A DNA stretch of 64,000 bases from UHGV virus genome UHGV-0236300; one strand, given 5' to 3'. Each line of letters opens with the position of its first letter. Position 1 is the first letter of the stretch. This DNA comes from a virus. The position numbers and the translations under genes are program-made. Under the pieces are notes generated by a model. That model did no database searches. It was not told where the DNA came from and worked only from the letters and a program-made list of their open reading frames with translations. Below, one piece after another: positions 764 through 63,065 of the stretch.

Positions 764-822
764 TATTTAAAATATCTAAGGGTAGGTCTACTCTTCACAC
801 AAGATAAGGAGAACACCAAACG

Positions 823-1065
823 ATGAAGCGTTATAAACCATACACTTTTGAAATCGATTTCGAACTTGACGATATGCTCACTGTAGAAGCTCAGGCAGTT
901 GTCCAGTTGCCAGATCCGGAGTGCCGTGATTCTGATGTTGATTATTATGGATTTAGACAGATTACTGATGTGCATGTTTACCACACAACGGAGAAGAGGT
1001 GGATTTTCACCAGTTACCAAACGATCTGCGCCACTCGATTTACAAACGTGCAGCACGTGAACTAG
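823..1065 (+). CDS. hypothetical protein
   Basis: 80-aa ORF with AAGGAGA RBS upstream of ATG. Confidence 0.5.
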   Translation: MKRYKPYTFEIDFELDDMLTVEAQAVVQLPDPECRDSDVDYYGFRQITDVHVYHTTEKRWIFTSYQTICATRFTNVQHVN

Positions 1066-1126
1066 AGTCCTATCTGGATGCAGCGACGACAGCGGCAGCA
1101 TTTGCTGAAGAAGTAGGAGGCTTCTA

Positions 1127-1525: not shown

Positions 1526-1537
1526 GGAGAGGGTGTT

Positions 1538-2020: not shown

Positions 2021-2027
2021 CACTATG

Positions 2028-2053
2028 CCCTGCCCGAAAGGGTGGGGCTTTTT
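2028..2053 (+). terminator. rho-independent terminator
   Basis: 8-bp stem CCCTGCCC/GGGTGGGG (G-U wobbles), GAAA loop, then CTTTTT; near-identical copy at 13029-13056. Confidence 0.6.
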
Positions 2054-2071
2054 GCATTAGGAGACAGCAAA

Positions 2072-2836
2072 TTGAAATTTATCTACAAAGAACACTACCA
2101 CAAAGGTGTCGTGTGGAGTCTATTTGACGGGTCTGGTGGTGCAGTTATTGACTGGGCAAAAGCTGGGTACCTGTGCCTGTGCTTTAATGCAGAAGGTGCT
2201 GACCACGGTAGTTATGCAGAGGTGATAACCGATCATCCTAACATTCACTATGTGGATTATTGGATTGATCCATGGTTCCCTCAAGAAACTTTTTGCATGT
2301 ATCCAGCTCCAGACTTTATTCTTGCATTTCCTCCGTGCACGCATTTAGCAGTATCCGGAGCTGCACACTTTAAGAAAAAGCTGGCTAAGGACCCACTGAT
2401 CCAAATTAATGCTGTGAAAGATGCTCGGGTTGCAGAAGAGTTGGGAGAGATTTATGATTGCCCGTGGCATGTAGAGAACCCTGTAGGAGTTATGTCAACA
2501 CTGTGGCGAAAACCTGATTACCGTTTTCATCCTTCGGATTATGGTGGGTATCTACCAGAGGACGATGTAAACCCATGGTTTCCTGAATTTATAGCTCCAC
2601 GTGATGCCTACCCAAAAATAACTTGCGGTTGGATAGGCAATGGATTTATAATCCCCGCCACAAAACCTGTCCCGCAAATAGTTGATGTGGTTAGTGGTTA
2701 TTCCATGCAACACGCTAAGCTAGGTGGAAAGAGTGCAAGGACGAAGATGATTCGAAGCCTTACACCACGTGGCTGGGCAAGAGCTGTATTCTTAGCAAAC
2801 GAGCCTGCAGTAAGGAGAAGAATTAATGGGCAGTAA
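2072..2836 (+). CDS. C5-cytosine methyltransferase-like protein (divergent, small)
   Basis: Motif I-like LFDGSGG, motif IV-like FPPCTHLAVSGA (PC dipeptide), motif VI-like HVENP; start taken as TTG 2072 after AGGAG, since GTG 2042 lies inside the terminator stem. Confidence 0.45.
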   Translation: MKFIYKEHYHKGVVWSLFDGSGGAVIDWAKAGYLCLCFNAEGADHGSYAEVITDHPNIHYVDYWIDPWFPQETFCMYPAPDFILAFPPCTHLAVSGAAHFKKKLAKDPLIQINAVKDARVAEELGEIYDCPWHVENPVGVMSTLWRKPDYRFHPSDYGGYLPEDDVNPWFPEFIAPRDAYPKITCGWIGNGFIIPATKPVPQIVDVVSGYSMQHAKLGGKSARTKMIRSLTPRGWARAVFLANEPAVRRRINGQ

Positions 2837-7386: not shown

Positions 7387-8228
7387 AAATAACATTGTGG
7401 CTTCGTGCAGTGATGCACGTCGAAAACCTCTTTAATTGACGGGAAGGCTAAGTTGACTTTTACGCCTAAACATGGTAAAAGCTCAATATGCTAATCCGCA
7501 GCGAAGACTAAAGGGGTGTAGTTAAAATGGCTAGATCAGTTGATTATCACGGATATACCGTGTTTGATGATGGAACAATACCTTTATCGAAACGTGATCA
7601 TACAACAATGTTTTGTTTTGATAATGGTAGAGGTTACCTTTGCGTAACCATGCTCATCGAGGGGAAGCAGTGCACAAAAGGTGTCCACCACTTGGTTGCT
7701 GAATGCTTTGTACCGAACCCTGATCCTGAAAAGCTCACATGGGTGAACCATAAGGATGGAAATAAGTACAACAATGCATACTGGAACTTGGAATGGACTA
7801 CCCCTGGCGGAAATATCAAACACGCCTACGATAATGAACTCAGAGTAAGGCCAGTCGGTGAGTATAATGCCAACGCTGTACTGACCGAGGATGAGGTAAC
7901 GGAGATTTGTGAACTGTTGCAGAGTGGTCTACGACAATGCGAGATTAGGGATCTTGGGTATCCTTATGAGACGGTTAGGGCCATAAAGCAAAGAAGACAG
8001 TGGAAACATATCTCTAAAAACTACACCTGGTAGTAACGTTCAGAGACTATCGAAAGCATAGCTCCAACATAGTTTGGTGTGAAGAAGCGAGTAGAGTAGG
8101 CCAGCAAGTGCGGTCGAAATGAGAGGTGCCTTGGTGACAAGGCAGTGAGATAGTCCGATCCATACAGGAAACCGTATGGCTGTGCACGTAATGGTGCGGG
8201 GTAGCTTAACGACCTACCTGAACTATTG
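7387..8228 (+). mobile_element. group I self-splicing intron with HNH endonuclease ORF, interrupting the DNA polymerase gene
   Basis: Core elements P AATTGACGGGAAGG (7434-7447), Q AATCCGCAGC (7493-7502), R GTTCAGAGACTA (8038-8049), S AGATAGTCC (8148-8156); upstream exon ends in U (7386), intron ends in G (8228); candidate P1 between exon CCAU and intron GUGG (7397-7400). Confidence 0.8.
7527..8033 (+). CDS. HNH homing endonuclease (intron-encoded)
   Basis: HNH motif HHLVAEC...NHKDGNKYNNAYWNLEW; ORF sits between intron elements Q and R. Confidence 0.8.
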   Translation: MARSVDYHGYTVFDDGTIPLSKRDHTTMFCFDNGRGYLCVTMLIEGKQCTKGVHHLVAECFVPNPDPEKLTWVNHKDGNKYNNAYWNLEWTTPGGNIKHAYDNELRVRPVGEYNANAVLTEDEVTEICELLQSGLRQCEIRDLGYPYETVRAIKQRRQWKHISKNYTW

Positions 8229-13850: not shown

Positions 13851-14276
13851 ATGATTTATGAAATGCCAAAACTGATTCGTGACGATGCACGAAACGCCCA
13901 CACCTTTATTATGGGCAAGCGCATGGATATTATTTGTCACAAAGACTTCTGGGAAGGGAGCTACTTCACAGAATATTTTGGAAAAATGGATGATGGCCTA
14001 CTGATCCAGTTTTACACCGATGCGGAAAACAACATTAGTTGGGAGTTCGAGACCGAAGATATCCATAAACTTTTCACCTTCCTTGGTATTAAGATTAAGG
14101 CCAAGTTTGAAGAGGGAGAGTGCGACGATTGTGGATTTTATGAGGTAACAGATTTCTATCTTCCGAGCGGTAAAAACCTTTACTATGAAAGCCACTTCGG
14201 TAACTCCAATATGCCACAGTGCTGGACTGAGTTTTTTGAAATTGTGGAAGAGGAGCTGGAATATCGTGATTATTGA
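13851..14276 (+). CDS. hypothetical protein
   Basis: 141-aa ORF, RBS CTGGAGA. Confidence 0.5.
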   Translation: MIYEMPKLIRDDARNAHTFIMGKRMDIICHKDFWEGSYFTEYFGKMDDGLLIQFYTDAENNISWEFETEDIHKLFTFLGIKIKAKFEEGECDDCGFYEVTDFYLPSGKNLYYESHFGNSNMPQCWTEFFEIVEEELEYRDY

Positions 14277-14724
14277 TACTGTAGAGGGAGATTTAATCTC
14301 CCTTTTTAAGAGCGGTGCTGGTCACCTGATCCACGGTTGTAACTGCTTCCACACAATGGGTAAGGGTGTAGCAAAACAGATTGCCCGTGAGTTCCCTCAA
14401 GCATTGGAAGCTGATAAAATGACTATGCACGGTTGCCTAAGTAAACTGGGCGCGTTCTCCCGCTGGGAGCACTTATCTCCGAGAGGTATTGTCTACGGAA
14501 TAAATCTGTATACTCAGTTCTACCCAGGGCCTAATGCTGAATATTTCTCAATACTGAAAGGATTTGAGCGAGTCAATGAAGTATTTGAGGGGTCGATTTT
14601 ACCATTCTACATCCCTAAGATCGGGTGCGGCATAGGCGGTTTGAAGTGGGAACATGTAGAGGACATTATTAACCTTGCCACTTTTGATATAGATATTATC
14701 GTGGTGGAGTACAAAGAGTGTTGA
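14266..14724 (+). CDS. macro-domain protein (ADP-ribose binding/hydrolase family)
   Basis: LIHGCNCFHTMGKGVAKQIAREF resembles the macro-domain Gly-rich ADP-ribose site; IPKIGCGIGGL resembles the second macro motif; GTG start 14266 after AGGAG, overlapping upstream stop. Confidence 0.6.
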   Translation: MIIDTVEGDLISLFKSGAGHLIHGCNCFHTMGKGVAKQIAREFPQALEADKMTMHGCLSKLGAFSRWEHLSPRGIVYGINLYTQFYPGPNAEYFSILKGFERVNEVFEGSILPFYIPKIGCGIGGLKWEHVEDIINLATFDIDIIVVEYKEC

Positions 14725-21780: not shown

Positions 21781-22044
21781 ATGAAACGTCTTGACCAGCT
21801 CAAACTAGTTCAGTACATGGCTTACAGAATTCTTGAAGTCCAAAAAGGTAGCAAAAAAGAAGTTTGCGAGAAAGCGTACAAGATCTTTACTCGCAAAAAA
21901 GACGATTGGATGTTACGCCAGACCAAAAAAGCCGATATCTTGGGGTACCTGGAAGAAGAGATCCGGCTTGAAGAACAAGAAGAGATCCGCCGTAGTGAGG
22001 CAGATTATCAGGCAGCTTGGGAAAACTGGATGAGCAACAAATAA
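21781..22044 (+). CDS. hypothetical protein
   Basis: ATG 21781 after AAGAGGAAA. Confidence 0.5.
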   Translation: MKRLDQLKLVQYMAYRILEVQKGSKKEVCEKAYKIFTRKKDDWMLRQTKKADILGYLEEEIRLEEQEEIRRSEADYQAAWENWMSNK

Positions 22045-22110
22045 TACAACAGGTTGCATGGTCAGGGGCGATAAAGCCCCTTGATCACATAAAAATTATG
22101 CTATCCCTTG

Positions 22111-22139
22111 TTGACAGGGATCGGCAGTTTTGCTATATT
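22111..22139 (+). promoter_or_regulatory. sigma70-like promoter
   Basis: TTGACA, 17-nt spacer, TATATT. Confidence 0.55.
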
Positions 22140-22188
22140 CTTTTTTGAAGGGAAGTTGTAAGAAAATTAACTAAGAGGTAAAAACACC

Positions 22189-22608
22189 ATGAACATTAAA
22201 TCTGATAATCCGGCATATAGCTTTGATAACGCTTTTTGTCACGGTCCGGCGGCGAAAGGATTCGAAATCGATGGTAAACTAATTATTGTCAATGTTGACG
22301 GGGAAGAGGTTGCAGTATATCCGGTGGCAGACGTTAAAAGCCGTCTACAATGCCGCATAGATGTTACCGCCTATCAGCTTGATCCGGTCCGGGTAGTTGC
22401 CCTGGTCCTGGAAGAAGAAATTAAAGCAATGCACCACAGCAACAAGTTTATTGGTGACGCTCAAGATAATATGCAGGTATGCCGCTATAAAGTTAATGAA
22501 GTGCTTAAAGAGTACGGCTATAAGGATTTAATGATCAAGCGCGATGAAAAATTCCGCTACCGTAACGACCTGGCAAATCGGATTTTTGAAATATACGAAT
22601 CATTATAA
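22189..22608 (+). CDS. hypothetical early protein
   Basis: 139-aa ORF, RBS TAAGAGGT. Confidence 0.55.
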   Translation: MNIKSDNPAYSFDNAFCHGPAAKGFEIDGKLIIVNVDGEEVAVYPVADVKSRLQCRIDVTAYQLDPVRVVALVLEEEIKAMHHSNKFIGDAQDNMQVCRYKVNEVLKEYGYKDLMIKRDEKFRYRNDLANRIFEIYESL

Positions 22609-22626
22609 TTTCTTAACTGAATTATC

Positions 22627-33591: not shown

Positions 33592-33908
33592 TGCACCTCC
33601 TTCTGCTGCAACAGCATCAACTCTTTGTTGGAAATCTTTACTGCTGTCTTTATTGTCCCATCTTCACGGAACCACGACCAGAATTCTACAGTGTCACCAC
33701 TATCAAGCAAGGCATGACCATGGTAAAAATCTTTGTCCTTAGACAGTTTCTCATCTATATCTGCATCGACACATTCGTGATCCATAGCATTCTGCCTGAA
33801 TGCATCGGTTATGCCAATGCACGCCTTACTCTCAAGGCTGGTATACCCAATATCTTTTAATTCAGTTCCCAAGTCCAGTATCCTACAAAAGCTACAACAG
33901 CCACCCAC
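33588..33908 (-). CDS. hypothetical protein (start uncertain)
   Basis: ORF beginning with GTG; overlaps a better-initiated 25-aa hydrophobic ORF (33857-33934) in another frame. Confidence 0.35.
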   Translation of the reverse strand: MGGCCSFCRILDLGTELKDIGYTSLESKACIGITDAFRQNAMDHECVDADIDEKLSKDKDFYHGHALLDSGDTVEFWSWFREDGTIKTAVKISNKELMLLQQKEVQ

Positions 33909-33994
33909 ATTAATATCGATTTAATCTTTGACATTCTCTCTACCTCTTTCTTAGTTTATTTAATTATGGCACATCCTTTGTGCCATAATGCACA

Positions 33995-34456
33995 TTACTT
34001 AAACAACAGTTCAAAATAGTGCAAAATTAACAGAAGTTGAATTACGCCTAGCACAACGGCGAGTATGTTGATCTTAGAATCAAAAAACTTCTTAACTTTT
34101 ACCCTAAAAGGCTCCTTAATGTCCTTTACGATCCTATTTATAGATGATTTCATATCCCTGATTACCATCCTAAACATTAGGGACGGATCTTCCTTCTCTG
34201 TAACGGAATCGAAAACATACTCTCTTCGGTCATAAGGACCTCCAGATCTGCGTATTAACCTCTCCACAGATACCTCGTACGACACACCTGTAACGTAATC
34301 ATCTATGACAAGTAGTGACGGATCTTTATCGTCCAAAGGTATTAAAGTTATCTTTCCAGATTTTGTTAAAATTTCTCCTTTTTCAAGCAGTGTGTACCAA
34401 TGCTCTCTACCAAGGTTGTTGAGGCACGTTTTTACATATTTAACAAACATCGTCAC
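33995..34456 (-). CDS. hypothetical protein with C-terminal transmembrane segment
   Basis: RBS GAGGGGTG; C-terminal ILAVVLGVIQLLLILHYF. Confidence 0.5.
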   Translation of the reverse strand: MTMFVKYVKTCLNNLGREHWYTLLEKGEILTKSGKITLIPLDDKDPSLLVIDDYVTGVSYEVSVERLIRRSGGPYDRREYVFDSVTEKEDPSLMFRMVIRDMKSSINRIVKDIKEPFRVKVKKFFDSKINILAVVLGVIQLLLILHYFELLFK

Positions 34457-34638
34457 CCCTCATCGCACGTCTGATATAGCCATTCTATGAAATCTTGATA
34501 CCACTCTCCCTCTGAGCGCTCCGTAGGCCAATAATCTTCCCCCTCTCTTGCATTAAAATCTGAGTATTCAACTTTCCACTCCTTTACCAGCTCGTGGAGA
34601 AGGTTTTCAGCCTGTTCTAAGGATTTATTTTTTGTCAT
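34453..34638 (-). CDS. hypothetical protein
   Basis: ATG after AAAAGGGGA; TAATG coupling with upstream small ORF. Confidence 0.45.
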   Translation of the reverse strand: MTKNKSLEQAENLLHELVKEWKVEYSDFNAREGEDYWPTERSEGEWYQDFIEWLYQTCDEG

Positions 34639-34744
34639 TACTGTCCCCTTTTTCAAGATAATTATACATCAGCGCCGCACCACCCAAAATGGCTACCAGC
34701 AGTAATACCCCAGAGAGCATTTCAATAAACATGGCTTGAAACAT
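34625..34744 (-). CDS. small hydrophobic peptide (39 aa)
   Basis: RBS AGAGGGGG; MFQAMFIEMLSGVLLLVAILGGAALMYNYLEKGDSNDKK. Confidence 0.3.
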   Translation of the reverse strand: MFQAMFIEMLSGVLLLVAILGGAALMYNYLEKGDSNDKK

Positions 34745-34875
34745 TAGAAGGCCCCCTCTAATTTCACGCACCATTTTAAATACATATTCTTTTCCCATAA
34801 AGGTGCCCGGCTAAGATCTGTGTAGAACGCAATCTCTTTAAGAACAGTATAAACAGTTTTAGGTGCGGTATCCAT
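34744..34875 (-). CDS. small protein (43 aa)
   Basis: RBS AAGGAGAG; TAATG overlap with next ORF. Confidence 0.3.
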   Translation of the reverse strand: MDTAPKTVYTVLKEIAFYTDLSRAPLWEKNMYLKWCVKLEGAF

Positions 34876-35095
34876 CCCTACTCTCCTTTTTCTCCTTACG
34901 GGTATTCTTGTAGTAATCAACCAGACACATTATTACGATGAAGACAACCACAGGCCAAAAAGGTGCAGCAGTGATGATGGTGATAAAATCATCAAACTTC
35001 ACCCTTCGTGTAGACACGATGCATATACCTGTCAAGATTACTGCTGTTATAACAGCTACTACTAGGTAACCTATTAGCACAGCATTTATACTCAT
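34859..35095 (-). CDS. small membrane protein with two TM helices and charged C-terminus (holin-like topology)
   Basis: RBS GAAGGAGG; two hydrophobic segments then KNTRKEKKESRDGYRT. Confidence 0.5.
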   Translation of the reverse strand: MSINAVLIGYLVVAVITAVILTGICIVSTRRVKFDDFITIITAAPFWPVVVFIVIMCLVDYYKNTRKEKKESRDGYRT

Positions 35096-35113
35096 TGGCT
35101 CCTCCTTCGTAGG

Positions 35114-35650
35114 TTAAATTGTGCACTTCAGGTGGTTGTCGATGGTGTCAAGAAAATTATCCCGTTCTTTCTCAGAGTTTTCACGGATGTAGCTGAAAAA
35201 CATATCTAGAATAACCTTATTGATATATTCCAACTCCTCTGTGTTCAAGTACTTAGCAGGATCTACAATGACATCCCAAGTATCATACAGACCGCACTCA
35301 TGATACCCCCAACGCCGCTCAATTGTCAAACTGATCGGCAAATCTTTACCGTCACAAACAACCCTCCATCTACAGATACTGGTATCTGGGCGTACCTGTG
35401 CACGGTATACCTGTACAAAATCCAATTTGAATTTGAGGTACTCGTCATACAATTTAAGCACAAAGCTCTCGATTTGTGGAGACACTTTTGCAGCAAACTG
35501 TGCGTATTTGTACTTGCACTGGATGATCTTTCTGCGTTTTGCAGTTAAATTTTTTGCAGCCAGTTGTTCTTCAGTGTACCTCCACCTACGATCAACAAAC
35601 GCAACAGGGTCTTTGTCCCCATAGAGGTCTTCCCAGTTAATCAGAAGCAT
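35114..35650 (-). CDS. hypothetical protein
   Basis: ATG after GGAGGAG. Confidence 0.5.
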   Translation of the reverse strand: MLLINWEDLYGDKDPVAFVDRRWRYTEEQLAAKNLTAKRRKIIQCKYKYAQFAAKVSPQIESFVLKLYDEYLKFKLDFVQVYRAQVRPDTSICRWRVVCDGKDLPISLTIERRWGYHECGLYDTWDVIVDPAKYLNTEELEYINKVILDMFFSYIRENSEKERDNFLDTIDNHLKCTI

Positions 35651-35655
35651 ACCTG

Positions 35656-35889
35656 TCACTCCTCCACAACTTCAAGGCCTTTACCGCCTCGCTCTGGCAG
35701 ATTGCCTAAAGATAGGTAATACGTATAATCAGGAGAGATCCTACCAGACTCTGCACCTGCAGCTAGTAAATATTTTCCCTTAACCATGACAACATTATCG
35801 TTTGCAGATAGCCGTTTTGCTTCCACAATTTTACCAACGCAGTCAACCAAGGAAGGGTACCCTAAATCTGTAAGAAATTTAACTTTCAT
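35656..35889 (-). CDS. hypothetical protein (MKVK / LAAGA family)
   Basis: RBS GTAGGAGG; MKVKFLTD... KYLLAAGAES ... LEVVEE. Confidence 0.5.
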   Translation of the reverse strand: MKVKFLTDLGYPSLVDCVGKIVEAKRLSANDNVVMVKGKYLLAAGAESGRISPDYTYYLSLGNLPERGGKGLEVVEE

Positions 35890-35928
35890 GCTACCTCCTA
35901 CTTCTACCGTCCCTGGTAAGATAAATTA

Positions 35929-36327
35929 TTACTGAACAGAGCGCGGAGCTGGGAAGGATAACTCTTCTAAAGAGAATATTTCATTTCCCACAATCCATGT
36001 TGCCGGATCATCCGGGTTGACTGGATAGATAATCATCACCTCATCAGTGTTACATACCCGCTTTTTACCTGTGGAGTTATCAGCAACTAGCATGCGAGGC
36101 TCTTCAGAGATACACAGGTATCCGCCACGTCCAACTGTCCCTTCTACAGGGTCCTGACCTTTTATTACGATGAATATCTTCTCTCCTGAGGTGATATTAC
36201 CTTGCACACTTACCGTTTGACCAACCTTGGATGTACCAATCTTAGTGACTTCGAACATTACATCACGGATAACTGTTGCATAGTTACCAGAGACTTTCTT
36301 ACCTTCTTCAGTAATCTCAATCTTCAT
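35929..36327 (-). CDS. hypothetical protein
   Basis: RBS TAAGGAGC. Confidence 0.5.
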   Translation of the reverse strand: MKIEITEEGKKVSGNYATVIRDVMFEVTKIGTSKVGQTVSVQGNITSGEKIFIVIKGQDPVEGTVGRGGYLCISEEPRMLVADNSTGKKRVCNTDEVMIIYPVNPDDPATWIVGNEIFSLEELSFPAPRSVQ

Positions 36328-36563
36328 AATCTAGGCTCCTTAAATGAATCTATATAGTCAATTAAATCCCAAGCATCCCTATGACCTGTCAGAGGGTATA
36401 CTTCTCCAAGAGGGATCATAGCAATAAGCCTATCAAAAACCCAGTCTGGACGCAACATTTTATGATGATATTCCCACTCACCTTCCACAGATTTTTTCTG
36501 AGTGATCAGAATCTCTGTGTAGTGTTTTGCCTGTCTTGAGTAAATTGAAAATGACTTATACAT
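36324..36563 (-). CDS. hypothetical protein
   Basis: RBS AGAGGGGGGG; ATGA-coupled. Confidence 0.5.
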   Translation of the reverse strand: MYKSFSIYSRQAKHYTEILITQKKSVEGEWEYHHKMLRPDWVFDRLIAMIPLGEVYPLTGHRDAWDLIDYIDSFKEPRL

Positions 36564-36600
36564 AGATGACCCCCCCTCTTGTTGAAAACAAAATACACTA

Positions 36601-36885
36601 CTACCAGGTCACTGTCAAGTAGGCAACTGTGTTATTTTTCTCCGGGGAGATGCCAACAACATCCACCCGCAGACCTCCTGCCCTCAAATCCCCAACGATG
36701 TGTGGGAAGTAGTCTGAGAGGTGTGATGGAAGATTTATCGAAAATCCGCATCCCAGAAAGCCTGCTAACGCCTTATTTTGTATCTCCCCTACAATCGCAT
36801 CATAAATGGAGTTAAGCTCGTCAGGGAGAGTTACAGGACGTTTTAGCGCTAACTGGTGCAACTTGTCCTTAGCACTCATTTTCAT
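36601..36885 (-). CDS. hypothetical protein
   Basis: ATG overlapping stop of upstream MTase gene. Confidence 0.45.
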   Translation of the reverse strand: MKMSAKDKLHQLALKRPVTLPDELNSIYDAIVGEIQNKALAGFLGCGFSINLPSHLSDYFPHIVGDLRAGGLRVDVVGISPEKNNTVAYLTVTW

Positions 36886-40988: not shown

Positions 40989-43109
40989 TCAGCAACCACA
41001 ACTTCCGTAGTGCTTAACCCGTTCTATAACCTCAGCCTGCTTACCCTTATTGTAAGGGCGGGAGTTTGGACTAGACAGATACCCGGATACGCGTCTGATC
41101 ACACTGATCGTTCCTTCTTCATGGTTTCCACACTCTGGGCATACAAAGCCTTTAGCTGTTGCACTGAACTCGCCAGAGAATCCACACTTAAGACATTTAT
41201 CCACAGGCTGGTTAATACCAAAATACATAATGTGTTTATACCCGAAATCGACAAGAGCTTCTAAAGCATCTAAGTTGTTTTTCAGGTTAGGTGTTTCTAT
41301 GTATCCAATGTTGCCGCCAGAAGAGATCATAGCAAAACCTTCCTCATACTTCCACTTGTCAAAAGGTGAGCTATTGATCCACACGGGTTGGTGGAAACTG
41401 TTGGTAAGGTATTCGTGCTCGTGCTTCAACACTTCAGGATATTCACGATCTAGACATGTTGCAGCCTTATAGCACAAGCTCTCTGAAGGAGTGCCGTACA
41501 AGCTGAATGCCAGACCACTTTCTTTTTTGTACCGATCACAAGCATCTTTCATGTGTTGAAGGATCCCAAGAGCTAAGGACTTGTCTCCCTCTCTGCCTAA
41601 AATCTGGCAGGTTTCATACACACCAATATACCCAATACTTATGGAAGCATACCCGTCATAGAAGAGTTTATCAATACTCTCTTCAGGATCCAGGCGAGCA
41701 AGGGCCCCTTCACACCACATGATGGGGTTCTGCCCTGCCTTTGTTCCTTTTAGACGGTTAACTCTTACAAGGTGAGCCTCGTATGCCAGATCCAAGTACT
41801 CGTCAAGAACTGCAAAGAAATCAACACCTTCCGTTTTAGCTTTTGCCGCAATCATTGGTAGGTTAAGGCTAACAACACCCAAGTTGAATCTGCCAAGGTA
41901 TTTTTCATCACCCTCCGAGGTAACGTATTTGCCAAGGAACGACCTACATCCCATGCTTGTTACTTTGCCATCTGTTGAACCTGTCACTTTACGATTTAGC
42001 GGAACAGAAACAAAGTCAGGATAAATCCGCTCTGCAGAGCATTCTAGGGCCAATCGTTTCAAATCATAGTTAGGATCCCCAGGGTTCATGTTGACACCAT
42101 CTTCTAAGAAGAACAGCACTTTAGGGAACACAGGCGTGATCCGTTCTTCACCAAGACCCATTTTGTGGACTTTCAAGTAGTTTTTGGTAATCATTCTACC
42201 AAAGACCGAAGTATCCAGCCCTAAACTTAATGTGATGAATGGGGTTTGCCCGTTGACAGAAGTTAACGTATTGATTTGGTAGAGCAAAGTTTGCATACTA
42301 TCAAACACGTCTTTATCGGTCATTTGCATTGCAACAGTCTCAGCATCTGGCAACCAATGTTCCTGACAAAATTTAAGGTTCTTCTCATAAGTTGCTTCAG
42401 CATATTGTGCCAGATAATGATCAATATGGCTCATAGTTTGACCACCATATTGAGCACTAGCTACTGCACTAGAGATTTGACTAAGGATTGTTGTTGCAAC
42501 CCCTATTGACTTCGGCTTACTGACATGGGCGTTGCCAATGTTGAATCCGTTTTCCAGCATATCCGGATAATTTACCAAACAACAGTTTGTTAACGGACTG
42601 ATCAGGTAGTCAAGATCATGCACATGGATGAAGCCCTTGTTGTGCTCTTCTGAGACACGATCTGGCAGGATCTGTGTTGATGCAAGGTGTTTGCTAAGGA
42701 TGCCTGCAAGCAGGTCACGATGAGTGTGTACATGATTAGTAGGCTTATTTGCGTTTTCTTTTGTAAATTCATCACAAGTACGATCCAAAAAGCCACTAAT
42801 ATCTGCAAGCAGTTTTCCACCTGCCTCTCTGTTATTATCTCTTGTCTGTCTATACTGGATGTATTCTCTGGCTGCACATTTTAAACCCATATCCATAAGA
42901 GCATCTTCAACAAGGATATGGATATTTTTTACAGAGATCGTGCACTGGTCGGTTGGCAGATTGTTGGCAACAACTTCATTAACCGCGCAGGCAATCCGGT
43001 AAGCTTCTTCTTCAGTATGCCCAGACTCAAGTAAGGCGGACTCTGCCGCCTTGATCACCTTAATTCCGTTATAAAACTCTTCTCTACCGTCCCGTTTTAC
43101 AACTTTCAC
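40989..43109 (-). CDS. nrdD: anaerobic ribonucleoside-triphosphate reductase
   Basis: Collinear with T4 NrdD as recalled; C-terminal Cys cluster and glycyl-radical-like RRVSGYL; GTG start overlapping upstream stop. Confidence 0.85.
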   Translation of the reverse strand: MKVVKRDGREEFYNGIKVIKAAESALLESGHTEEEAYRIACAVNEVVANNLPTDQCTISVKNIHILVEDALMDMGLKCAAREYIQYRQTRDNNREAGGKLLADISGFLDRTCDEFTKENANKPTNHVHTHRDLLAGILSKHLASTQILPDRVSEEHNKGFIHVHDLDYLISPLTNCCLVNYPDMLENGFNIGNAHVSKPKSIGVATTILSQISSAVASAQYGGQTMSHIDHYLAQYAEATYEKNLKFCQEHWLPDAETVAMQMTDKDVFDSMQTLLYQINTLTSVNGQTPFITLSLGLDTSVFGRMITKNYLKVHKMGLGEERITPVFPKVLFFLEDGVNMNPGDPNYDLKRLALECSAERIYPDFVSVPLNRKVTGSTDGKVTSMGCRSFLGKYVTSEGDEKYLGRFNLGVVSLNLPMIAAKAKTEGVDFFAVLDEYLDLAYEAHLVRVNRLKGTKAGQNPIMWCEGALARLDPEESIDKLFYDGYASISIGYIGVYETCQILGREGDKSLALGILQHMKDACDRYKKESGLAFSLYGTPSESLCYKAATCLDREYPEVLKHEHEYLTNSFHQPVWINSSPFDKWKYEEGFAMISSGGNIGYIETPNLKNNLDALEALVDFGYKHIMYFGINQPVDKCLKCGFSGEFSATAKGFVCPECGNHEEGTISVIRRVSGYLSSPNSRPYNKGKQAEVIERVKHYGSCGC

Positions 43110-57299: not shown

Positions 57300-58583
57300 T
57301 TATTCCAGCACCTCCCAAGTGTCTGGGTTAACATTTCGGACACAGATGCCGACAGGGAATTGGTAGTTGTTGTCTTCTGTCCTTGCTTGATATTTGAAGG
57401 TGACAAACTTGCCGATCATTTCCTGCATCCTGTCATAGCTGCGCTCCTCGTGCGTACCTTTCATCTTCATTTTAACAACGATACCTTCCTTGTCAACACA
57501 GATAAGAACACCTTCATCATTCTTATCTTTCTCAACGTCAATAACTTTCACCTCAGCATCGTTGAACTTTTTCCATTTCAATGCTTCGGATGTTCGCTGA
57601 CCGTATTCGTATTTACCACAGAAGTTACGCATGATAGTACCTTCATATCCTTCGGACATGAATACACCAACAGATTCTTCGCAATGATCAACTGTGTACG
57701 CAAGCTCTGCGTCAACAACCTTGATATTGTCAAGCATCAGAGTGGCAATGGTATCTTCTGCATCCATGAGATCCTTGCATCGTCCAGATTCTGTTTCCGG
57801 ATCCCACCATACCTTGTCACTAGGGATGTCGAAAATATGATACTCTAAGTCATAGCTACAGTACCCTCCGTAACGCAAATCATCACGAACAGGCTCAACA
57901 TCAACAGGAATATCTACCTTATTGAAGTTTTTGTATGTTGATAAGCCTGCCTTAATTGCGGCATGACGGCGTTTTTTATCTGCCTCGTAGTCTTTATCGA
58001 TCTCGGCCTGAATCTCTTCCTGTGTGCGCCACCGTTTAGCAAGAGACACTATTTTCTGCAGAGGCAGACCATGAATATAGATCTCTCCGTCGAGCTGTTT
58101 AATCCCGGTGGTGAAGTGGAAAGAACGAAGTTGCTCCAGAAGCTTTCCTTGAATAGGGTAGGACTTATTACCACGGGAAATAAATTTAGGCTCACCGTTT
58201 TGGAAAACAACCAGTAGACGAAGGCCATCTAACTTACGCAAGATCCAGCAAGGCAATTTAAGTGCCTTTCCACGCTTCAGGTAGTCATGCACCAGCATGG
58301 GTAAAAGGTCAACACCCTGCTCGCAATCTTCCATATTTTCAACATACCCCAGACGGACTTGTTTTTCCCACTTACTGATCGCTTCCAGCTCAGCCTGTTG
58401 CTCAGCTGTAGTTTCATTGGCACGACCCACGTTCTTAGGTGTGCAGATCGTCTCTTTGTATTGCAGTTTACCATCAAGCTTGCCAAACTCTACGATAACC
58501 TTATCACCATCCGTGAATACTTTCCACTGTTGGTAGCTGCCATCTTTGTTCAGTGCGTACAGTGTTGTTTTAATCTGATGCAT
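57300..58583 (-). CDS. ATP-dependent DNA ligase
   Basis: Adenylation motif I KLDGLR; RBS AGGAAGAGG. Confidence 0.6.
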   Translation of the reverse strand: MHQIKTTLYALNKDGSYQQWKVFTDGDKVIVEFGKLDGKLQYKETICTPKNVGRANETTAEQQAELEAISKWEKQVRLGYVENMEDCEQGVDLLPMLVHDYLKRGKALKLPCWILRKLDGLRLLVVFQNGEPKFISRGNKSYPIQGKLLEQLRSFHFTTGIKQLDGEIYIHGLPLQKIVSLAKRWRTQEEIQAEIDKDYEADKKRRHAAIKAGLSTYKNFNKVDIPVDVEPVRDDLRYGGYCSYDLEYHIFDIPSDKVWWDPETESGRCKDLMDAEDTIATLMLDNIKVVDAELAYTVDHCEESVGVFMSEGYEGTIMRNFCGKYEYGQRTSEALKWKKFNDAEVKVIDVEKDKNDEGVLICVDKEGIVVKMKMKGTHEERSYDRMQEMIGKFVTFKYQARTEDNNYQFPVGICVRNVNPDTWEVLE

Positions 58584-58852
58584 TACTCAGCCTCTTCCTT
58601 AAAAATTTTAAACATCTCTTCTTTGCTCATTACCAACCAGTCTCCCATAAAGTCAACTAACCAATCCCCTTGGTACAAGACCAGGTTACCAAACGGCTCG
58701 ACAAGCTCACACATGCGGAGAATATCTCTGGTCCGAACAGGTGACGGTGTAAACACACCTGTATCAATCCACCGTTGCAGATCAGATACTGATGAAGAGC
58801 TTCCGTCAAACTGGTGTGCTTCTACAGGTTTAGCAAGATTAAATAACGGCAT
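58583..58852 (-). CDS. hypothetical protein
   Basis: RBS GAAGGAGG; ATGA-coupled. Confidence 0.5.
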   Translation of the reverse strand: MPLFNLAKPVEAHQFDGSSSSVSDLQRWIDTGVFTPSPVRTRDILRMCELVEPFGNLVLYQGDWLVDFMGDWLVMSKEEMFKIFKEEAE

Positions 58853-59147
58853 TGCAGTCCTCCTTCTCTAATAGGTCTTTTATCGGGTAAACAAGTAGGT
58901 GTGGATCGTAATAATTTATAGTTTTATTCTGCCACACTATGAACTTAATTACAACTAAATTTACCACATCTTTATCTCCATGCAGTCCAACACACAGATT
59001 TGTCCATACTTTGTGGTTGAATACTTTGCTGTCGATATAGATCTTAGTGTCAAACTTATCCTCTATCCTACCTATAAGTTTAACCAATTCTTTCATCTGA
59101 TCCCCAAACACATCATCGTTTTCAAGATCTCTGGAGTGCTTGTACAT
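58839..59147 (-). CDS. hypothetical protein
   Basis: RBS GAGGTAG. Confidence 0.5.
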   Translation of the reverse strand: MYKHSRDLENDDVFGDQMKELVKLIGRIEDKFDTKIYIDSKVFNHKVWTNLCVGLHGDKDVVNLVVIKFIVWQNKTINYYDPHLLVYPIKDLLEKEDCNAVI

Positions 59148-59169: not shown

Positions 59170-59204
59170 CTTTCCGAAACAAGTAAAGCCGGGATCGCCC
59201 CGGC
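59170..59204 (-). terminator. rho-independent terminator
   Basis: Minus-strand hairpin GCCGGG/CCCGGC then U-rich CTTTACTTGTTT. Confidence 0.55.
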
Positions 59205-59211
59205 TATGTTA

Positions 59212-59925
59212 TTAAATATATTCTGTTACATCCTTGAAGCTTGAAGGCTTCATAATCTTACCTTTACTGTCGAGGAATATGATAACTTTATTTCCGTTGT
59301 AGAATTCTTCTTTAGCAACAAAACCTTCATAGCGACCATCAAAGCGTCGCTCAAGATCTTTAATCTCCAACTCGATGAGTTGTTCAGCAGGCATATCTGC
59401 ACTGGCACCGTGTGAATGCCGCAGATGGTTGACACGTGCAAACTTGCTGTCATTAGATTTTAGAACCTTCCGCATCATCCCGCACACATCACCGCGAAGC
59501 TGGAACAGTAAAGCCGTTGACAGCTCTGCTAAGCGGTAAGCAGACGCTCTTTGCTTAGAGGTATTTTTCGCAGCGATCAGTGTATCATAAAATTCACCGA
59601 TCTTAAACTTAAGACCTCGCGGATTATCAAACAGGTTTGACCACTTTTCATGGTTATCGTTAACAAGATAAGCGGCATAACTTGTGACAACGTGAAGATC
59701 GCAGGCCTCTTTTAGGAGATGATCCCCACCATCACCTTTCTCCAACTCTTCCAAAACTTCATTGAACTCTTCCTCAATGAAACTCAGCTGAAGTTCGAAT
59801 GGTGTGTATGATTTTTTCACTTTAGCTGCTACACGGTTCCAATTTTCCACCCAGTTGGCAGACCAAAGGTAGTTTTCAGGCTGAGACAGTTTTTCCAGGT
59901 TGTCGATCAGTTTAGTATTCAGCAT
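59212..59925 (-). CDS. MazG-like nucleotide pyrophosphohydrolase domain protein
   Basis: IEEEFNEVLEELEKGD...LLKEACDLHVV matches the MazG EExxE...D...E..D core; RBS GGAGG. Confidence 0.55.
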   Translation of the reverse strand: MLNTKLIDNLEKLSQPENYLWSANWVENWNRVAAKVKKSYTPFELQLSFIEEEFNEVLEELEKGDGGDHLLKEACDLHVVTSYAAYLVNDNHEKWSNLFDNPRGLKFKIGEFYDTLIAAKNTSKQRASAYRLAELSTALLFQLRGDVCGMMRKVLKSNDSKFARVNHLRHSHGASADMPAEQLIELEIKDLERRFDGRYEGFVAKEEFYNGNKVIIFLDSKGKIMKPSSFKDVTEYI

Positions 59926-59939
59926 TAAAAGGCCTCCGC

Positions 59940-60701
59940 TTACAGTTCCATAAAGTTTTCTACGATGTCAATAAATGTTTTATCAGAGAAAGCGTCAACC
60001 GCCCCGTTAAACCAAACTGGGATGCCGCGATCCTCATACTGGTAAATGTCACTACGTGAAATGCCATTCTCCCCTAAATGCTGTGAGTCGTATTTGTTGA
60101 CGATCAGCAGTTTGGTTCCCTTATTACAGGCAGGGAATAGCTCCCAGTTAAAATTGATAACTGTGTTGGAGCACCCTACAAGGATAACCATATCATTGCT
60201 CGTCAGAGAAGTCAACAGGTCATACATGTCTGTATACTTTGGAGCTACTTCTCCGAAAAACACTACATTAGGCTTAACCCAAGTATACTTGCTTGCGTCT
60301 ACCTCAGAGTATCCAATGTCTTTAATGACGTCACTCCCTTCATCATCCTCGTAGACTATTTCTGGCAAATATCCGTGGACATGTAAAATATCTTCATGTT
60401 TTACACCAGCACGCTCCAGCAAATCATCTACATTGGTTGTCAGGTTGATCACACGACCAGACCAGCGTGAATACCACTCAGCGATCCGGAGATGTGCAAG
60501 GTTAGGATCAACACTGCCCAAAGCTACACGCCGTGCATTGTAAAAGTCATGCACCTTATAGTAGTTCTTGGCAAAGGTGTGGATGTTACACACCTCATCG
60601 ATGCTGAAATTCTCCCACATTGCAGTGCCACCAGATCGGAAAGTGGGGATACCAGATTCAGCGCTCAAACCAGCACCGGAGATAATGATCAGTCGTCGCA
60701 T
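59940..60701 (-). CDS. Sir2-family (sirtuin) NAD-dependent deacylase / ADP-ribosyltransferase
   Basis: GAGLSAESGIPTFR, TTNVDDLLERAG, catalytic His in LHVHGY, VVFFGE, ILVGCSNTV; no obvious Zn-ribbon cysteines; RBS GAGGA. Confidence 0.8.
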   Translation of the reverse strand: MRRLIIISGAGLSAESGIPTFRSGGTAMWENFSIDEVCNIHTFAKNYYKVHDFYNARRVALGSVDPNLAHLRIAEWYSRWSGRVINLTTNVDDLLERAGVKHEDILHVHGYLPEIVYEDDEGSDVIKDIGYSEVDASKYTWVKPNVVFFGEVAPKYTDMYDLLTSLTSNDMVILVGCSNTVINFNWELFPACNKGTKLLIVNKYDSQHLGENGISRSDIYQYEDRGIPVWFNGAVDAFSDKTFIDIVENFMEL

Positions 60702-60709
60702 AAGTGTCC

Positions 60710-61060
60710 TCAGTAGATGTTTTGTTTAATCTCTATTCCAAACTTTTTAAACGAGTCAGCAGCAAGCATGAATTTACGAGCCGCTGATGGGTTAGAAGTA
60801 TGCACGAAAATCTTCACGTTGTCAACTACAGGAGGCTTACCAAATACAAATTTTTCCTCCAGCATAGATAGGCAATCGTACCCTTCAAATACCTCTCCAA
60901 GGTCGTTGTCCATGTGCCACTCAGAAACGCGCCTGTAGAGCTTTCTCTTATCGTTAATAAAATCCATAAACTCAGAGGAATTCTTTAGCCAAATAGCATC
61001 TGGGAGCCCATAATTTGACGGATCTCTCAAGTCATCCAGCCACACAATCAACTTCTTCAT
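60710..61060 (-). CDS. hypothetical protein upstream of the sirtuin gene
   Basis: 116-aa ORF, RBS GAGGA; N-terminus MKKLIVWLDD. Confidence 0.5.
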   Translation of the reverse strand: MKKLIVWLDDLRDPSNYGLPDAIWLKNSSEFMDFINDKRKLYRRVSEWHMDNDLGEVFEGYDCLSMLEEKFVFGKPPVVDNVKIFVHTSNPSAARKFMLAADSFKKFGIEIKQNIY

Positions 61061-61992
61061 TGCATATAGTCCTCGTTGTGGAAATAGCAGTCAAGTATCT
61101 CACTGCGTTCCTGCTCTAGGAGGCAGTTCCACACATCTTCTGTGTAATTGTTACGAATGAAGTTTACCATGCCGTAAAACTCTTCGTCAATACGTTTAAA
61201 GATATCATCATCCCAAATCTTCCAAGCTTTACCCCTCATTACGGCCTTCCGTGCCAAATAGTATGGAGACTTGATCTTCAGCTGCAGATCATAAGGGTAG
61301 TAAGGCTTACGAATCATATACCCTTCACCTCTTGTTTCTGCAGCTAATTCTTTTGCATAGCTGAACGGAATTTCACGCACAGTGTGAGGACGTTTTGCAC
61401 CAAGGTATTTGGCAATCCCATCTAAAGCTGCTTCTGGTAGCATTATTCCAGAATCATTATATCTGCAACCTATCAAATATGCGCCATGATCTTCCTGAAC
61501 AATATGCGGATCTGAAGGGTGACAAATTTCAAACATGAATGTCATGTTTTCATGGCCCATAACCCTCTTGATAAGATCTAAATTACCACATTGCTCCTGG
61601 ATTGTTTCCTTTGCGAGGTTACAATATGGAGAATCAAGAGACCCGGTTGTTGAGAACAATAGTTCACCTTTATGAGATGATACCACACCAAGGAATCCGT
61701 TCTTTTTCTCTACCGCCGTCACAAGTTTATTGTCAGGCAGGTTGGTGGAATTTTCTCCCAAGTTAAACACTTTTGTGAAGGGCCATGCCACAACATTTCC
61801 TTCATTACCGACAACAATGCCTCGGCACTCCAGCAAACGAGGAGACAAATGCCATAAATTGTTGTAGAATACTTTTCTGGCATATTTATAGATCTTTAAC
61901 CCAAGATCCGGGTAATATCTGCTGGTTACAAGACCTTTGTCAACTAGGTCGTCTGCATTAAAATACTTCATTATACATTCCTCATTTGTCAT
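61057..61992 (-). CDS. RNA ligase 1 (T4 Rnl1-like)
   Basis: LECRGIVV, KVFNLGEN and KKNGFLGVVS match T4 Rnl1 LECRGIMF, KFFNLNEN, KEDGSLVS (recalled from memory). Confidence 0.75.
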   Translation of the reverse strand: MTNEECIMKYFNADDLVDKGLVTSRYYPDLGLKIYKYARKVFYNNLWHLSPRLLECRGIVVGNEGNVVAWPFTKVFNLGENSTNLPDNKLVTAVEKKNGFLGVVSSHKGELLFSTTGSLDSPYCNLAKETIQEQCGNLDLIKRVMGHENMTFMFEICHPSDPHIVQEDHGAYLIGCRYNDSGIMLPEAALDGIAKYLGAKRPHTVREIPFSYAKELAAETRGEGYMIRKPYYPYDLQLKIKSPYYLARKAVMRGKAWKIWDDDIFKRIDEEFYGMVNFIRNNYTEDVWNCLLEQERSEILDCYFHNEDYMQ

Positions 61993-62046
61993 TTTGTCCC
62001 TTTATCCTGCCACACAAATAACTTGGTGTCAACACTTGAAATTAAC

Positions 62047-62075
62047 AAAACAGTTAGGTATACTATCATTAAAAT
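62047..62075 (+). promoter_or_regulatory. sigma70-like promoter
   Basis: TTGAAA, 17-nt spacer, TATACT. Confidence 0.5.
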
Positions 62076-62092
62076 TAAAACGGAGAGTTACT

Positions 62093-62503
62093 ATGTCTAA
62101 AATGCTATATATCGTGCGTGGTCTACCAGGGTCTGGCAAATCAACACTGGCAAATGCGCTATCTTTAGAAGGTCTGTATCCACATTTTGAGAACGATATG
62201 TTCTGGTACGACGATGACGGCAATTACAATTGGGATGCAAGTAAAGTAACACTTGCAGCAAAATGGTGCAAAGATAACGTAGAAGATATGATGCGTATGG
62301 GCTACGACCGTATCGTGGTAAGTAATACGTTTACAAAAGAAAAATATGTGCAAGAATATATTGACATGGCGATCAGTCATGGATATAGTTATACCGTGAT
62401 CGTGGTTGAAAACCGCCATGGTAATAAAAGCATTCATGATGTTCCAGACAGGGTTGTGGATCGTATGGAACGCCAGCTTAAAAACTGCATTAAACTTAAA
62501 TGA
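62093..62503 (+). CDS. polynucleotide 5'-kinase (T4 Pnk kinase-domain-like)
   Basis: Walker A GLPGSGKST; C-terminal ENRHGNKSIHDVPDRVVDRM resembles T4 Pnk RNSKRGTKAVPIDVLRSM; RBS GGAGAG. Confidence 0.7.
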   Translation: MSKMLYIVRGLPGSGKSTLANALSLEGLYPHFENDMFWYDDDGNYNWDASKVTLAAKWCKDNVEDMMRMGYDRIVVSNTFTKEKYVQEYIDMAISHGYSYTVIVVENRHGNKSIHDVPDRVVDRMERQLKNCIKLK

Positions 62504-62510: not shown

Positions 62511-63065
62511 ATGAAATACTTTGTAACAAGCGACACACACTTTCTCCACCAGCGGGTAATGGAGTTCGACTCATGTCAAAAACACAGATCTCAGTATGAT
62601 CACAATCTTGACAGTATGAATGCGGGAATCATCACCAAGTGGAACTCTGTTGTGTCACCTGCAGACACTGTGTTTCACTTGGGGGATATTGCGTGCACTA
62701 ATGATAAGAATATCAACAAATTGCTTCCAGATGTTCTAAATATGTTGAACGGACATATTATTCTTGTTCGTGGTAACCATGACACAAAGACGACTGTCAG
62801 AATTATGAAAGAGTTCGGTCATGAGGTTGTAGATTATTACGAGCTTCGCCACAACAAGAATTTGATCTGTATGAGCCATTACCAGTTTGCAAAGTGGAAC
62901 AGAAAGCCTCACGGATCAGTCCAACTGTTCGGTCATGCTCACGGAACCACACAGCAGTTGTTTGGCAGGCAGTTTGATGTCGGTTGGGATGTGTGGGGGA
63001 GACTCTTACCATTAGAAGAGGCATACCGTATTGCAATGAGTCTTGCTATTGACAGCGGGGAGTAA
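62511..63065 (+). CDS. calcineurin-like metallophosphoesterase (candidate 2',3'/3'-phosphatase)
   Basis: DTHF, GDIAC and GNHD metal-binding motifs; RBS GAGGA. Confidence 0.65.
   Translation: MKYFVTSDTHFLHQRVMEFDSCQKHRSQYDHNLDSMNAGIITKWNSVVSPADTVFHLGDIACTNDKNINKLLPDVLNMLNGHIILVRGNHDTKTTVRIMKEFGHEVVDYYELRHNKNLICMSHYQFAKWNRKPHGSVQLFGHAHGTTQQLFGRQFDVGWDVWGRLLPLEEAYRIAMSLAIDSGE

Follow-up and report, generated by a model that had tools for sequence, protein, structure and literature searches.

The 64,000-nt stretch of virus genome UHGV-0236300 analysed here, referred to as the window, encodes a sirtuin of the Sir2 family (253 amino acids (aa); 59940..60701, minus strand). Its gene lies in a four-gene unit together with genes for an RNA ligase, a cyclic-phosphate-processing receiver (cREC) domain protein and a nucleoside triphosphate (NTP) pyrophosphohydrolase, and a kinase and a metallophosphoesterase are encoded divergently beside it. 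The feature is real and already known, both from public annotation and from a published comparative-genomics prediction for this phage group. We favour, tentatively and with somewhat less than even confidence, the reading of PMC9503650 that these genes form a phage RNA-repair module linked to nicotinamide adenine dinucleotide (NAD+) and ADP-ribose, in which the sirtuin would act in the manner of Tpt1/KptA. The RNA mended by such a module would probably be tRNA. That the phage sirtuin acts on nucleic acid and not on protein is a possibility we hold with slightly greater doubt.

The 253-aa protein matched the Pfam SIR2 profile (PF02146) with an E-value of 1.3e-26 (94.1 bits, cut-off 24; profile positions 1–178 of 180) and phrog_2162 with an E-value of 9e-109. 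Its AlphaFold model had a sirtuin fold (pLDDT 88.6, pTM 0.87), with the Rossmann domain and small domain of solved sirtuins, and a Foldseek search with this model gave a probability of 1.0 to CobB, SIRT5, Sir2Af and Sir2Tm. The best structural matches were the CobB entries 6rxq/1s5p (TM 0.75/0.84), and the best PDB sequence matches were E. coli CobB (1s5p, E 3e-21) and then SIRT5. A preliminary description of this DNA had named the protein a phage-encoded sirtuin, flanked by a MazG-like protein and a protein of 116 aa; this identification held, and the three open reading frames (ORFs) are located on the minus strand at the coordinates given. Chance similarity is ruled out by the E-values.

The NAD-binding and catalytic motifs of sirtuins could be read directly in the translation and were invariant in an alignment of 24 homologues with 51–62% identity. 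They comprised G9-A10-G11, S16-G17 (the serines of GAGxS being read as S13 and S16), F21-R22, N90 and D92 within TTNVDD, H109-G110, and FFGE at 148–151. The codons for G9-A10-G11 are located at 60669–60677, that for Y54 at 60540–60542, that for R57 at 60531–60533 and that for H109 at 60375–60377. As the preliminary description had noted, the four-cysteine zinc ribbon is absent. The sirtuin has three cysteines in total (C38, C177 and C191), none of them between H109 and F148 (residues 110–147), and no CxxC pair occurred between the HG and FGE motifs in any of the 24 homologues. The model placed three beta strands in this cysteine-free segment. Distant relatives, collected with a profile search covering 1.8 billion representative proteins, had a 'DIGY' signature in the same segment in common. 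Two CxxC pairs were present in some of these relatives and absent from others, which makes the zinc-site loss specific to a sub-clade. The domain fusions of longer relatives consisted of tandem Sir2 and WG repeats only and were uninformative.

The segment F53-Y54-N55-A56-R57-R58 aligned with FYNARR of CobB and contains the class III motif YxxR, which in CobB and SIRT5 serves to bind an anionic acyl group and was likewise invariant here. On the basis of the sequence alignment with the PDB hit and the mutant names in PDB entry titles, CobB residues A76, Y92, R95 and H147 correspond to C38, Y54, R57 and H109, and none of these four phage positions varied within the clade. Where sirtuins canonically have the loop GTS-x-V-x-P, the phage proteins have V-I-N-F-x-W-x-L-F-P without variation. 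The phage protein resembles CobB and SIRT5 in fold, in the GAGxS, FR, N/D, HG and FYNARR motifs and in about 27% overall identity, which is much higher in the first 100 residues, and differs from them in the missing zinc cysteines, the cysteine at the position of CobB A76, the VINFxWxLFP loop and its location in an RNA-repair operon.

Three assignments were rejected. The best NCBIfam models were 'NAD-dependent protein deacylase' models, and those for CobB scored less than half of their cut-offs (NF001753, 120.8 versus 243; NF040867 prot_deacyl_CobB, 101.9 versus 320), so the protein is not a CobB orthologue (equivalog) captured from a host. Nor does it belong to the Tpt1/KptA family; it is a sirtuin by sequence and fold, and any relation to Tpt1 would be one of functional analogy. 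A defence-type Sir2 NADase was rejected because none of the six proteins matched a Sir2 model in a PADLOC scan at E-values up to 0.01 and because the nearest relatives are CobB and SIRT5. The phage sirtuin has the Sir2 superfamily and the use of NAD+ in common with the defence NADases (ThsA, DSR1/2, SIR2-HerA, SPARSA), many of which also lack the zinc ribbon. It differs from them in that it is a single-domain protein of a virulent phage with deacylases as nearest relatives, without a fused or adjacent sensor or ATPase (SLOG, TIR, HerA, pAgo or DSR repeats) and with RNA-repair enzymes as neighbours. The comparison with effectors of anti-phage defence that had been drawn for this gene was therefore misleading.

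The first gene of the unit (61057..61992, minus strand) encodes an RNA ligase of 311 aa of the Rnl1 family (T4 RnlA-like). It matched RNA_lig_T4_1 (PF09511) over the full profile (1–227; E 1.1e-14, 55 bits, cut-off 28) and phrog_562 (E 7e-66), and the lysine-containing motifs EKKNG and LKIKSPYY were visible in its translation. Since its match to TIGR02308 was weak (39 bits versus 242), it is not an equivalog of T4 Rnl1. The 116-aa protein encoded by the second gene (60710..61060, minus strand) had been called uncharacterised; it is a cREC domain protein (cREC_REC, PF20274, E 2e-14, 54.5 bits, cut-off 27; also phrog_1479). In 14 homologues D51, D53, H87-T88-S89-N90-P91 and K96 were invariant and D9/D10 nearly so, and the receiver-like acidic active site is retained. 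The cREC domain was defined by Iyer et al. in 2021 (PMC7824862) and is considered a processor of ADP-ribose derivatives, experimentally uncharacterised, in PMC9503650.

The sirtuin gene is third, and the fourth and last gene (59212..59925, minus strand) encodes an all-alpha NTP pyrophosphohydrolase of 237 aa from the superfamily of MazG, HisE and dimeric dUTPases. This is the protein that had been labelled 'MazG-like'; in fold, dimeric dUTPases come nearer to it than MazG does. The only Pfam match of the protein itself was a weak one to PRA-PH (E 0.083, 13.8 bits versus 21.3); its homologues matched PRA-PH in 12 of 12 cases (best E 4.8e-6) and MazG (PF03819) in ten of the 12 (best E 5.9e-5). 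The metal-binding motif ExxE...ExxD was present on a four-helix core.

Two further genes are encoded on the plus strand. The P-loop kinase (62093..62503, 136 aa) resembles polynucleotide kinases: it matched AAA_33 (PF13671, E 2.7e-10) as well as phrog_2071 and phrog_505, 'polynucleotide kinase', and had a visible Walker A motif (GLPGSGKST). The calcineurin-like metallophosphoesterase (62511..63065, 184 aa) matched PF12850 and PF00149 above their cut-offs (E ~2e-6) and phrog_547, 'phosphoesterase' (E 1e-51). For both genes we adopted the starts annotated publicly in HMD-6, a phage with 98% identity. PDB sequence searches with the RNA ligase, the kinase and the cREC protein gave no match. The RNA ligase, kinase, phosphoesterase and cREC identity were absent from the preliminary description, and this context points to RNA end-processing and the handling of an ADP-ribose by-product.

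On the minus strand, the four genes follow each other head to tail from 61992 to 59212 in the order RNA ligase, cREC, sirtuin, pyrophosphohydrolase. The stop codon of the ligase gene overlaps the cREC start by 4 nt (ATGA), the gaps on either side of the sirtuin gene are 8 nt (cREC) and 14 nt (pyrophosphohydrolase), and the gene after each gap has a GGAGG-like ribosome-binding site of its own. Co-transcription of the sirtuin gene with its two neighbours, as had been suggested, is supported. The unit is larger than described and includes the RNA ligase upstream. A GC-rich hairpin directly 3' of the pyrophosphohydrolase stop codon (59187..59205, minus strand; eight-pair stem with six G-C pairs, followed by a T-rich tail) is probably a terminator or attenuator that closes the four-gene unit. 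Its stem GCCGGG...CCCGGC recurred with a different loop in two related loci (L001, ~7495–7515; L052, ~3155–3175; locus numbers are ours). At the other end, a divergent intergenic region of 100 bp (61993..62092) separates the RNA ligase from the kinase gene. It contains a promoter-like TTGAAA-17-TATACT on the plus strand (62036–62064), and the kinase ATG is preceded by a GGAGAG ribosome-binding site; no promoter-like site with at least 9 of 12 matches was found on the minus strand of this region. The four-gene unit was delimited by the hairpin and the divergent region, not by spacing.

Escherichia phage NHEP1 matched the 3-kb region with 99% identity, and an identity of 90% or more was reached in 118 phage records from the rV5/FV3 group (Vequintavirus); near-identical copies of the locus were counted in 121 phage records. 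The phage of the window is an rV5/FV3-like Vequintavirus. Public records of this group already annotate Sir2, nucleotide pyrophosphohydrolase, cREC and RNA ligase. In HMD-6, the annotated genes are DNA ligase, nucleotide pyrophosphohydrolase, SIR2-family NAD-dependent protein deacetylase, cyclic-phosphate processing receiver protein, RNA ligase, polynucleotide kinase and phosphoesterase. According to Iyer, Burroughs, Anantharaman & Aravind (2022, Viruses 14:1977; PMC9503650), the majority of viral sirtuins belong to a clade of their own, and three gene neighbourhoods are conserved. The neighbourhood with phage V5 as prototype is treated in sections 3.3.2 and 3.7.3 of that paper, and section 3.7.3 predicts an NAD+-using RNA-repair system from it. 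Its authors proposed a KptA/Tpt1-like role for the sirtuin, which would take 2'-phosphates off RNA that metal-independent nucleases have cleaved; the associated phosphoesterases would open the cyclic phosphate or process ADP-ribose cyclic phosphate.

The locus in the window is exactly this V5-type neighbourhood. Its gene set is identical to that of the type 2 neighbourhood of Escherichia phage V5 and Proteus phage Mydo (sirtuin, T4-like RNA ligase, cREC, nucleotide kinase, MazG-superfamily pyrophosphatase and calcineurin-like phosphoesterase). Compared with Mydo-like loci, the kinase and phosphoesterase genes are divergent here and the pyrophosphatase directly follows the sirtuin, with no substantive difference. 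A standalone phage sirtuin had been described as unusual, which was not supported: this sirtuin clade was present in 979 of 50,697 phage records (~2% of sequenced phages), and the locus was annotated and published in 2022.

We hypothesized a series of reactions for which we infer the substrate, the chemistry and the order of steps. A metal-independent RNase of the host, for example an anticodon nuclease, would leave 2',3'-cyclic-phosphate and 5'-OH ends. The cyclic phosphate would be opened by cREC and/or the metallophosphoesterase, the 5'-OH end phosphorylated by the kinase and the break sealed by the RNA ligase. The sirtuin would use NAD+ to remove a leftover RNA 2'-phosphate, either terminal or at the junction, in a two-step reaction like that of Tpt1/KptA. 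A phosphate oxygen would attack C1'' of NAD+ with release of nicotinamide, and H109 would activate the 2''-OH of ADP-ribose, which would in turn attack the phosphate. The by-product would be broken down by cREC, the pyrophosphohydrolase and perhaps a Macro-domain protein encoded elsewhere on the phage.

Several lines of evidence led us to favour this NAD+-dependent repair of RNA. The sirtuin shares its operon with an RNA ligase and cREC, and the full catalytic set needed for two steps is invariant, including H109. The class III anion pocket (Y54 and R57, with C38 at CobB A76) is also invariant, and the surface facing the substrate has been remodelled through loss of the zinc cysteines and the VINFxWxLFP loop. 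Partners of the cREC and 2H type fit a phosphorylated ADP-ribose by-product and not O-acyl-ADP-ribose, an argument drawn by inference from the known Tpt1 pathway (PMC6097658).

The gene neighbourhoods of related phages provided further support. Among 51 viral loci with close homologues of the sirtuin, 11–12 rV5/Mydo-like loci kept the same gene set clustered despite a shuffled order. A calcineurin-like phosphoesterase was located near Sir2 in 12 of the 51 loci, as was a DNA ligase; in Mydo-like loci all genes are co-linear and the DNA ligase directly follows Sir2 with a stop/start overlap. HAD_SAK_2 (PF18143, E 4e-20; 'HAD domain in Swiss Army Knife RNA repair proteins'), a HAD phosphatase of the RNA-repair type, followed the sirtuin within ~1 kb in 28 of 31 T5-like loci. 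The cREC domain also recurred in distant lineages, with a Nudix protein in the place of the MazG-like one. Finally, tRNA genes lie near the module in HMD-6.

These tRNA genes encode tRNA-Arg, tRNA-Tyr and tRNA-Met (PQ505080.1, 60477–61198) and are located ~3 kb past the phosphoesterase gene. From their position in HMD-6, the tRNA genes of the phage studied here are placed just beyond the end of the window, in which an ARAGORN tRNA scan and an Rfam scan found nothing. No tRNA genes were located next to Sir2 in 11 related loci.

An ordinary class III deacylase, similar to CobB and SIRT5, that removes acetyl or succinyl groups from lysines of host or phage proteins with NAD+ and lies beside RNA-repair genes through inherited synteny, is an unlikely but serious alternative. 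It would explain why CobB and SIRT5 come out first in both sequence and fold comparisons, why the top NCBIfam models are named 'NAD-dependent protein deacylase', and why the catalytic set is invariant together with YxxR, the motif for succinyl-lysine in SIRT5 and CobB. In T5-like phages, members of the clade have no RNA ligase beside them, in Phapecoctavirus sirtuin and ligase are apart, and the Macro-domain protein of the same phage could be an O-acyl-ADP-ribose deacylase. Against a plain deacylase stand the scores far below the CobB equivalog cut-offs, the lost zinc cysteines and remodelled substrate-side loop, and the presence of CobB in the host. A deacylase also gives no reason for the cREC, 2H, HAD_SAK_2 and Nudix neighbours that recur in independent lineages.

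The Macro-domain protein is encoded in the early region, 45 kb from the sirtuin (14266..14721, plus strand). It matched PF01661 (E 1.3e-7, 32 bits, cut-off 22) and was 93% identical to the 'macro domain protein' of HMD-6. By its sequence it is possibly a phosphatase or esterase of ADP-ribose derivatives. Phage Macro proteins of the Poa1p type dephosphorylate ADP-ribose-1''-phosphate as a counter-defence (bioRxiv 10.64898/2026.01.28.702374), and the protein encoded here could act on the by-product of the sirtuin or be an independent anti-defence gene.

The search with distant sirtuins covered 21 further lineages with 148 neighbour ORFs, in which no Pfam family other than cREC and NAMPT appeared repeatedly; overall, cREC was found in 356 of the 50,697 phage records. 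In the jumbo-type locus L102 (2041–9801), as in L107 and L108, one co-oriented array contained NAMPT, followed at some distance by a 2H phosphoesterase, Sir2, a Nudix protein, cREC and PIN-PhoH. The 2H protein of L102 had its best Pfam match to the anti-CBASS protein Acb1 (E 2.4e-17), the Nudix protein was Nudt16-like and PIN-PhoH was a fusion. This order reproduces the type 1 neighbourhood of PMC9503650. A cREC protein was also found 1.2 kb from Sir2 in L101, and NAMPT was located directly upstream of Sir2 in L092. The element that recurs across independent lineages is Sir2 with cREC and a pyrophosphatase, either Nudix or the all-alpha enzyme. The link to the RNA ligase was confined to one broad myovirus lineage, and NAD+ salvage genes were often found near Sir2 in relatives.

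These neighbourhoods bear on a second alternative, less probable than the deacylase, which gives definite form to the ideas on NAD+ and counter-defence that the preliminary description had offered as speculation. The sirtuin would here work on the small-molecule pool of NAD+ and ADP-ribose, or would modify a host target by ADP-ribosylation, and would belong to an NAD+-centred island serving takeover or counter-defence. The cREC protein and the pyrophosphatase would then process soluble ADP-ribose derivatives or immune signals. Such an island is consistent with the NAMPT-like genes at 0.5–4 kb from Sir2 in L092 and in L102, L107 and L108, with the NAMPT-like and Prs-like pair, resembling NARP1, at ~5 kb in Mydo-like loci, and with the Acb1 match of the 2H neighbour in L102. 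It also agrees with the view of cREC as a processor of ADP-ribose derivatives (PMC9503650) and with the proven role of phage enzymes for ADP-ribose-1''-phosphate in counter-defence (bioRxiv 10.64898/2026.01.28.702374). However, a phage would have no obvious gain from using NAD+ when many host defences deplete it, the sirtuin has no similarity to the Sir2 models of defence NADases, and its retained catalytic histidine argues for two-step chemistry over simple hydrolysis or transfer. NAD+ salvage genes were not found in the window and neither NAMPT nor Prs is annotated in HMD-6, which belongs to this phage lineage; moreover, the sirtuin shares its operon with an RNA ligase.

The sirtuin gene sits inside a nucleotide-metabolism block, near the genes for ribonucleotide reductase, ThyX and deoxynucleoside monophosphate (dNMP) kinase. 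This location, together with the phosphatase and nucleotide pyrophosphatase that constantly accompany the sirtuin, suggests a third alternative, namely a CobT-like base exchange or transfer of a phosphoribosyl or ADP-ribosyl group onto a small molecule, after which the dUTPase-like pyrophosphatase and the phosphatases would trim the unusual nucleotide. There is a precedent in CobB, which was first found through an activity like that of nicotinate mononucleotide:5,6-dimethylbenzimidazole (NaMN:DMB) phosphoribosyltransferase, as cited in section 3.3.2 of PMC9503650. We consider this alternative very improbable, as it leaves the link to RNA ligase and cREC unexplained and no candidate acceptor is known.

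The repair of RNA with NAD+ remains the reading that we favour, although a number of observations weigh against it. The closest characterised relatives of the sirtuin are protein lysine deacylases, and all residues needed for deacylation are kept, including YxxR. A Tpt1-like step is not obviously needed, because the kinase, phosphoesterase and Rnl1-type ligase already form a full set for heal-and-seal repair in the T4 style, after which no 2'-phosphate remains; furthermore, KptA is encoded by the E. coli host itself. An NAD+-centred counter-defence island would account just as well for the genes resembling NAMPT, NARP1 and Acb1 that some relatives have nearby. Between ~26 kb and ~62 kb, almost every gene has the same orientation and lies close to the next, and since ~37 kb of the phage is one such array, close spacing is weak evidence for functional coupling. 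The genes are also separable. None of the 31 T5-like loci had an RNA ligase or cREC near the sirtuin, ~8 phi92/Phapecoctavirus-like loci of the 51 had no recognisable sirtuin partner, and the genome of phage ukendt encodes Sir2 at a distance of 33 kb from cREC/RNA ligase. A 151-kb phage (L053, 10001–14087) encoded cREC, two small ORFs, a calcineurin-like phosphoesterase, a DNA ligase and a MazG-like protein in a module without sirtuin, RNA ligase and kinase; since it carries this backbone alone, the backbone is separable from the Sir2, Rnl1 and kinase genes. In the literature on phage sirtuins or cREC we found no experimental work, only comparative papers of the Aravind group.

In comparison with known repair systems, the module resembles that of Tpt1/KptA in the predicted reaction, the NAD+-dependent removal of an RNA 2'-phosphate, and in the partners, which are an RNA ligase, a kinase, a cyclic phosphodiesterase and clean-up of the Macro/Poa1p type (PMC6097658, PMC11417386). 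The two-step chemistry of Tpt1/KptA is formally parallel to sirtuin catalysis, a parallel that we draw by analogy. The folds differ (ADP-ribosyltransferase (ART)-like versus Rossmann sirtuin fold), and any likeness would be functional convergence. With Pnkp and Rnl1 of T4 the module has in common a 5'-kinase, an end-healing phosphatase, a ligase of the Rnl1 family and a lytic coliphage as carrier. It differs in that the phosphatase is calcineurin-like here and HAD-type in T4, the kinase forms a small protein of its own, the ligase is remote from T4 Rnl1, and cREC, the sirtuin and the pyrophosphatase are additional. The type 1 and type 3 neighbourhoods of Iyer et al. contain the same sirtuin family, type 3 being reproduced in the 28 T5-like loci with HAD_SAK_2, but lack the RNA ligase and kinase and have Nudix or HAD enzymes in place of the MazG-like and calcineurin-like ones.

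The locus is no new finding, as its genes are annotated in >100 public genomes and its neighbourhood and proposed function were published in 2022. Its remaining value lies in the biochemical hypothesis as an experimental target, and the sirtuin clade, the commonest among viral sirtuins, has members in easily handled coliphages of the T5-like and rV5-like kinds. Were the RNA 2'-phosphate hypothesis true, the reach of sirtuin chemistry would widen from proteins to RNA, this would be the first sirtuin directed at RNA, and a first activity or function could be assigned to the cREC domain. Phage tRNA repair would then have a branch that consumes NAD+, which bears on defences based on anticodon nucleases. 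A plain deacylase or an enzyme of NAD+/ADP-ribose metabolism would show how these phages use or protect the NAD+ pool of the host.

Beyond the hairpin, the minus strand encodes two small conserved proteins (102 aa, phrog_7684; 89 aa, phrog_14585; 58583–59147) between the pyrophosphatase and an ATP-dependent DNA ligase (57300..58583; PF01068, PF14743), which is a syntenic neighbour and only a possible member of the module. Homologues of the two small proteins stay within the module in Mydo-like loci, where the 89-aa domain is extended to ~154 aa. In two related loci (L047, 5079–5564; L050, ~5090–5575), a 161-aa protein occupies the cREC slot between kinase and sirtuin. It matched phrog_652 (unknown function) only, with no Pfam or PDB match, and may have taken the place of cREC without being homologous to it. 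In T5-like loci (7651–8481 in L002, and 30 others), HAD_SAK_2 is always followed by a tandem pair of paralogous DUF7415 genes (phrog_2502).

The NAMPT-like (PF04095, 572 aa) and Prs-like (293 aa) pair, located ~5 kb from the Sir2/cREC module in Mydo-like loci, was found in L022, L023, L027, L047, L050 and L051 (~1–1400) and in L053 (5085–7755), and resembles the NARP1 pathway of NAD+ reconstitution (Namat and Adps). Beside this pair, L053 carries 15 tRNA genes on the minus strand (86–4286), one of which has a CTA anticodon, is amber-suppressor-like and was called tRNA-Pyl by ARAGORN.

Some observations concerned the comparison with HMD-6. Its gene at 113322–113795 is annotated as 'polynucleotide kinase', but the product has HAD motif I (IAIDFDGT), no P-loop and no Pfam match, and from its sequence is more likely to be a HAD phosphatase than a kinase. 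HAD motif I was the sole feature that it shared with the HAD_SAK_2 proteins of T5-like phages. About 0.8 kb of the window (about 21786–22621) had no match in HMD-6. The large subunit of the anaerobic ribonucleotide reductase is encoded in the window by a single intact ORF of 706 aa (40989–43109, minus strand); in HMD-6 (33766–36831), the same gene is interrupted by an HNH homing endonuclease gene.

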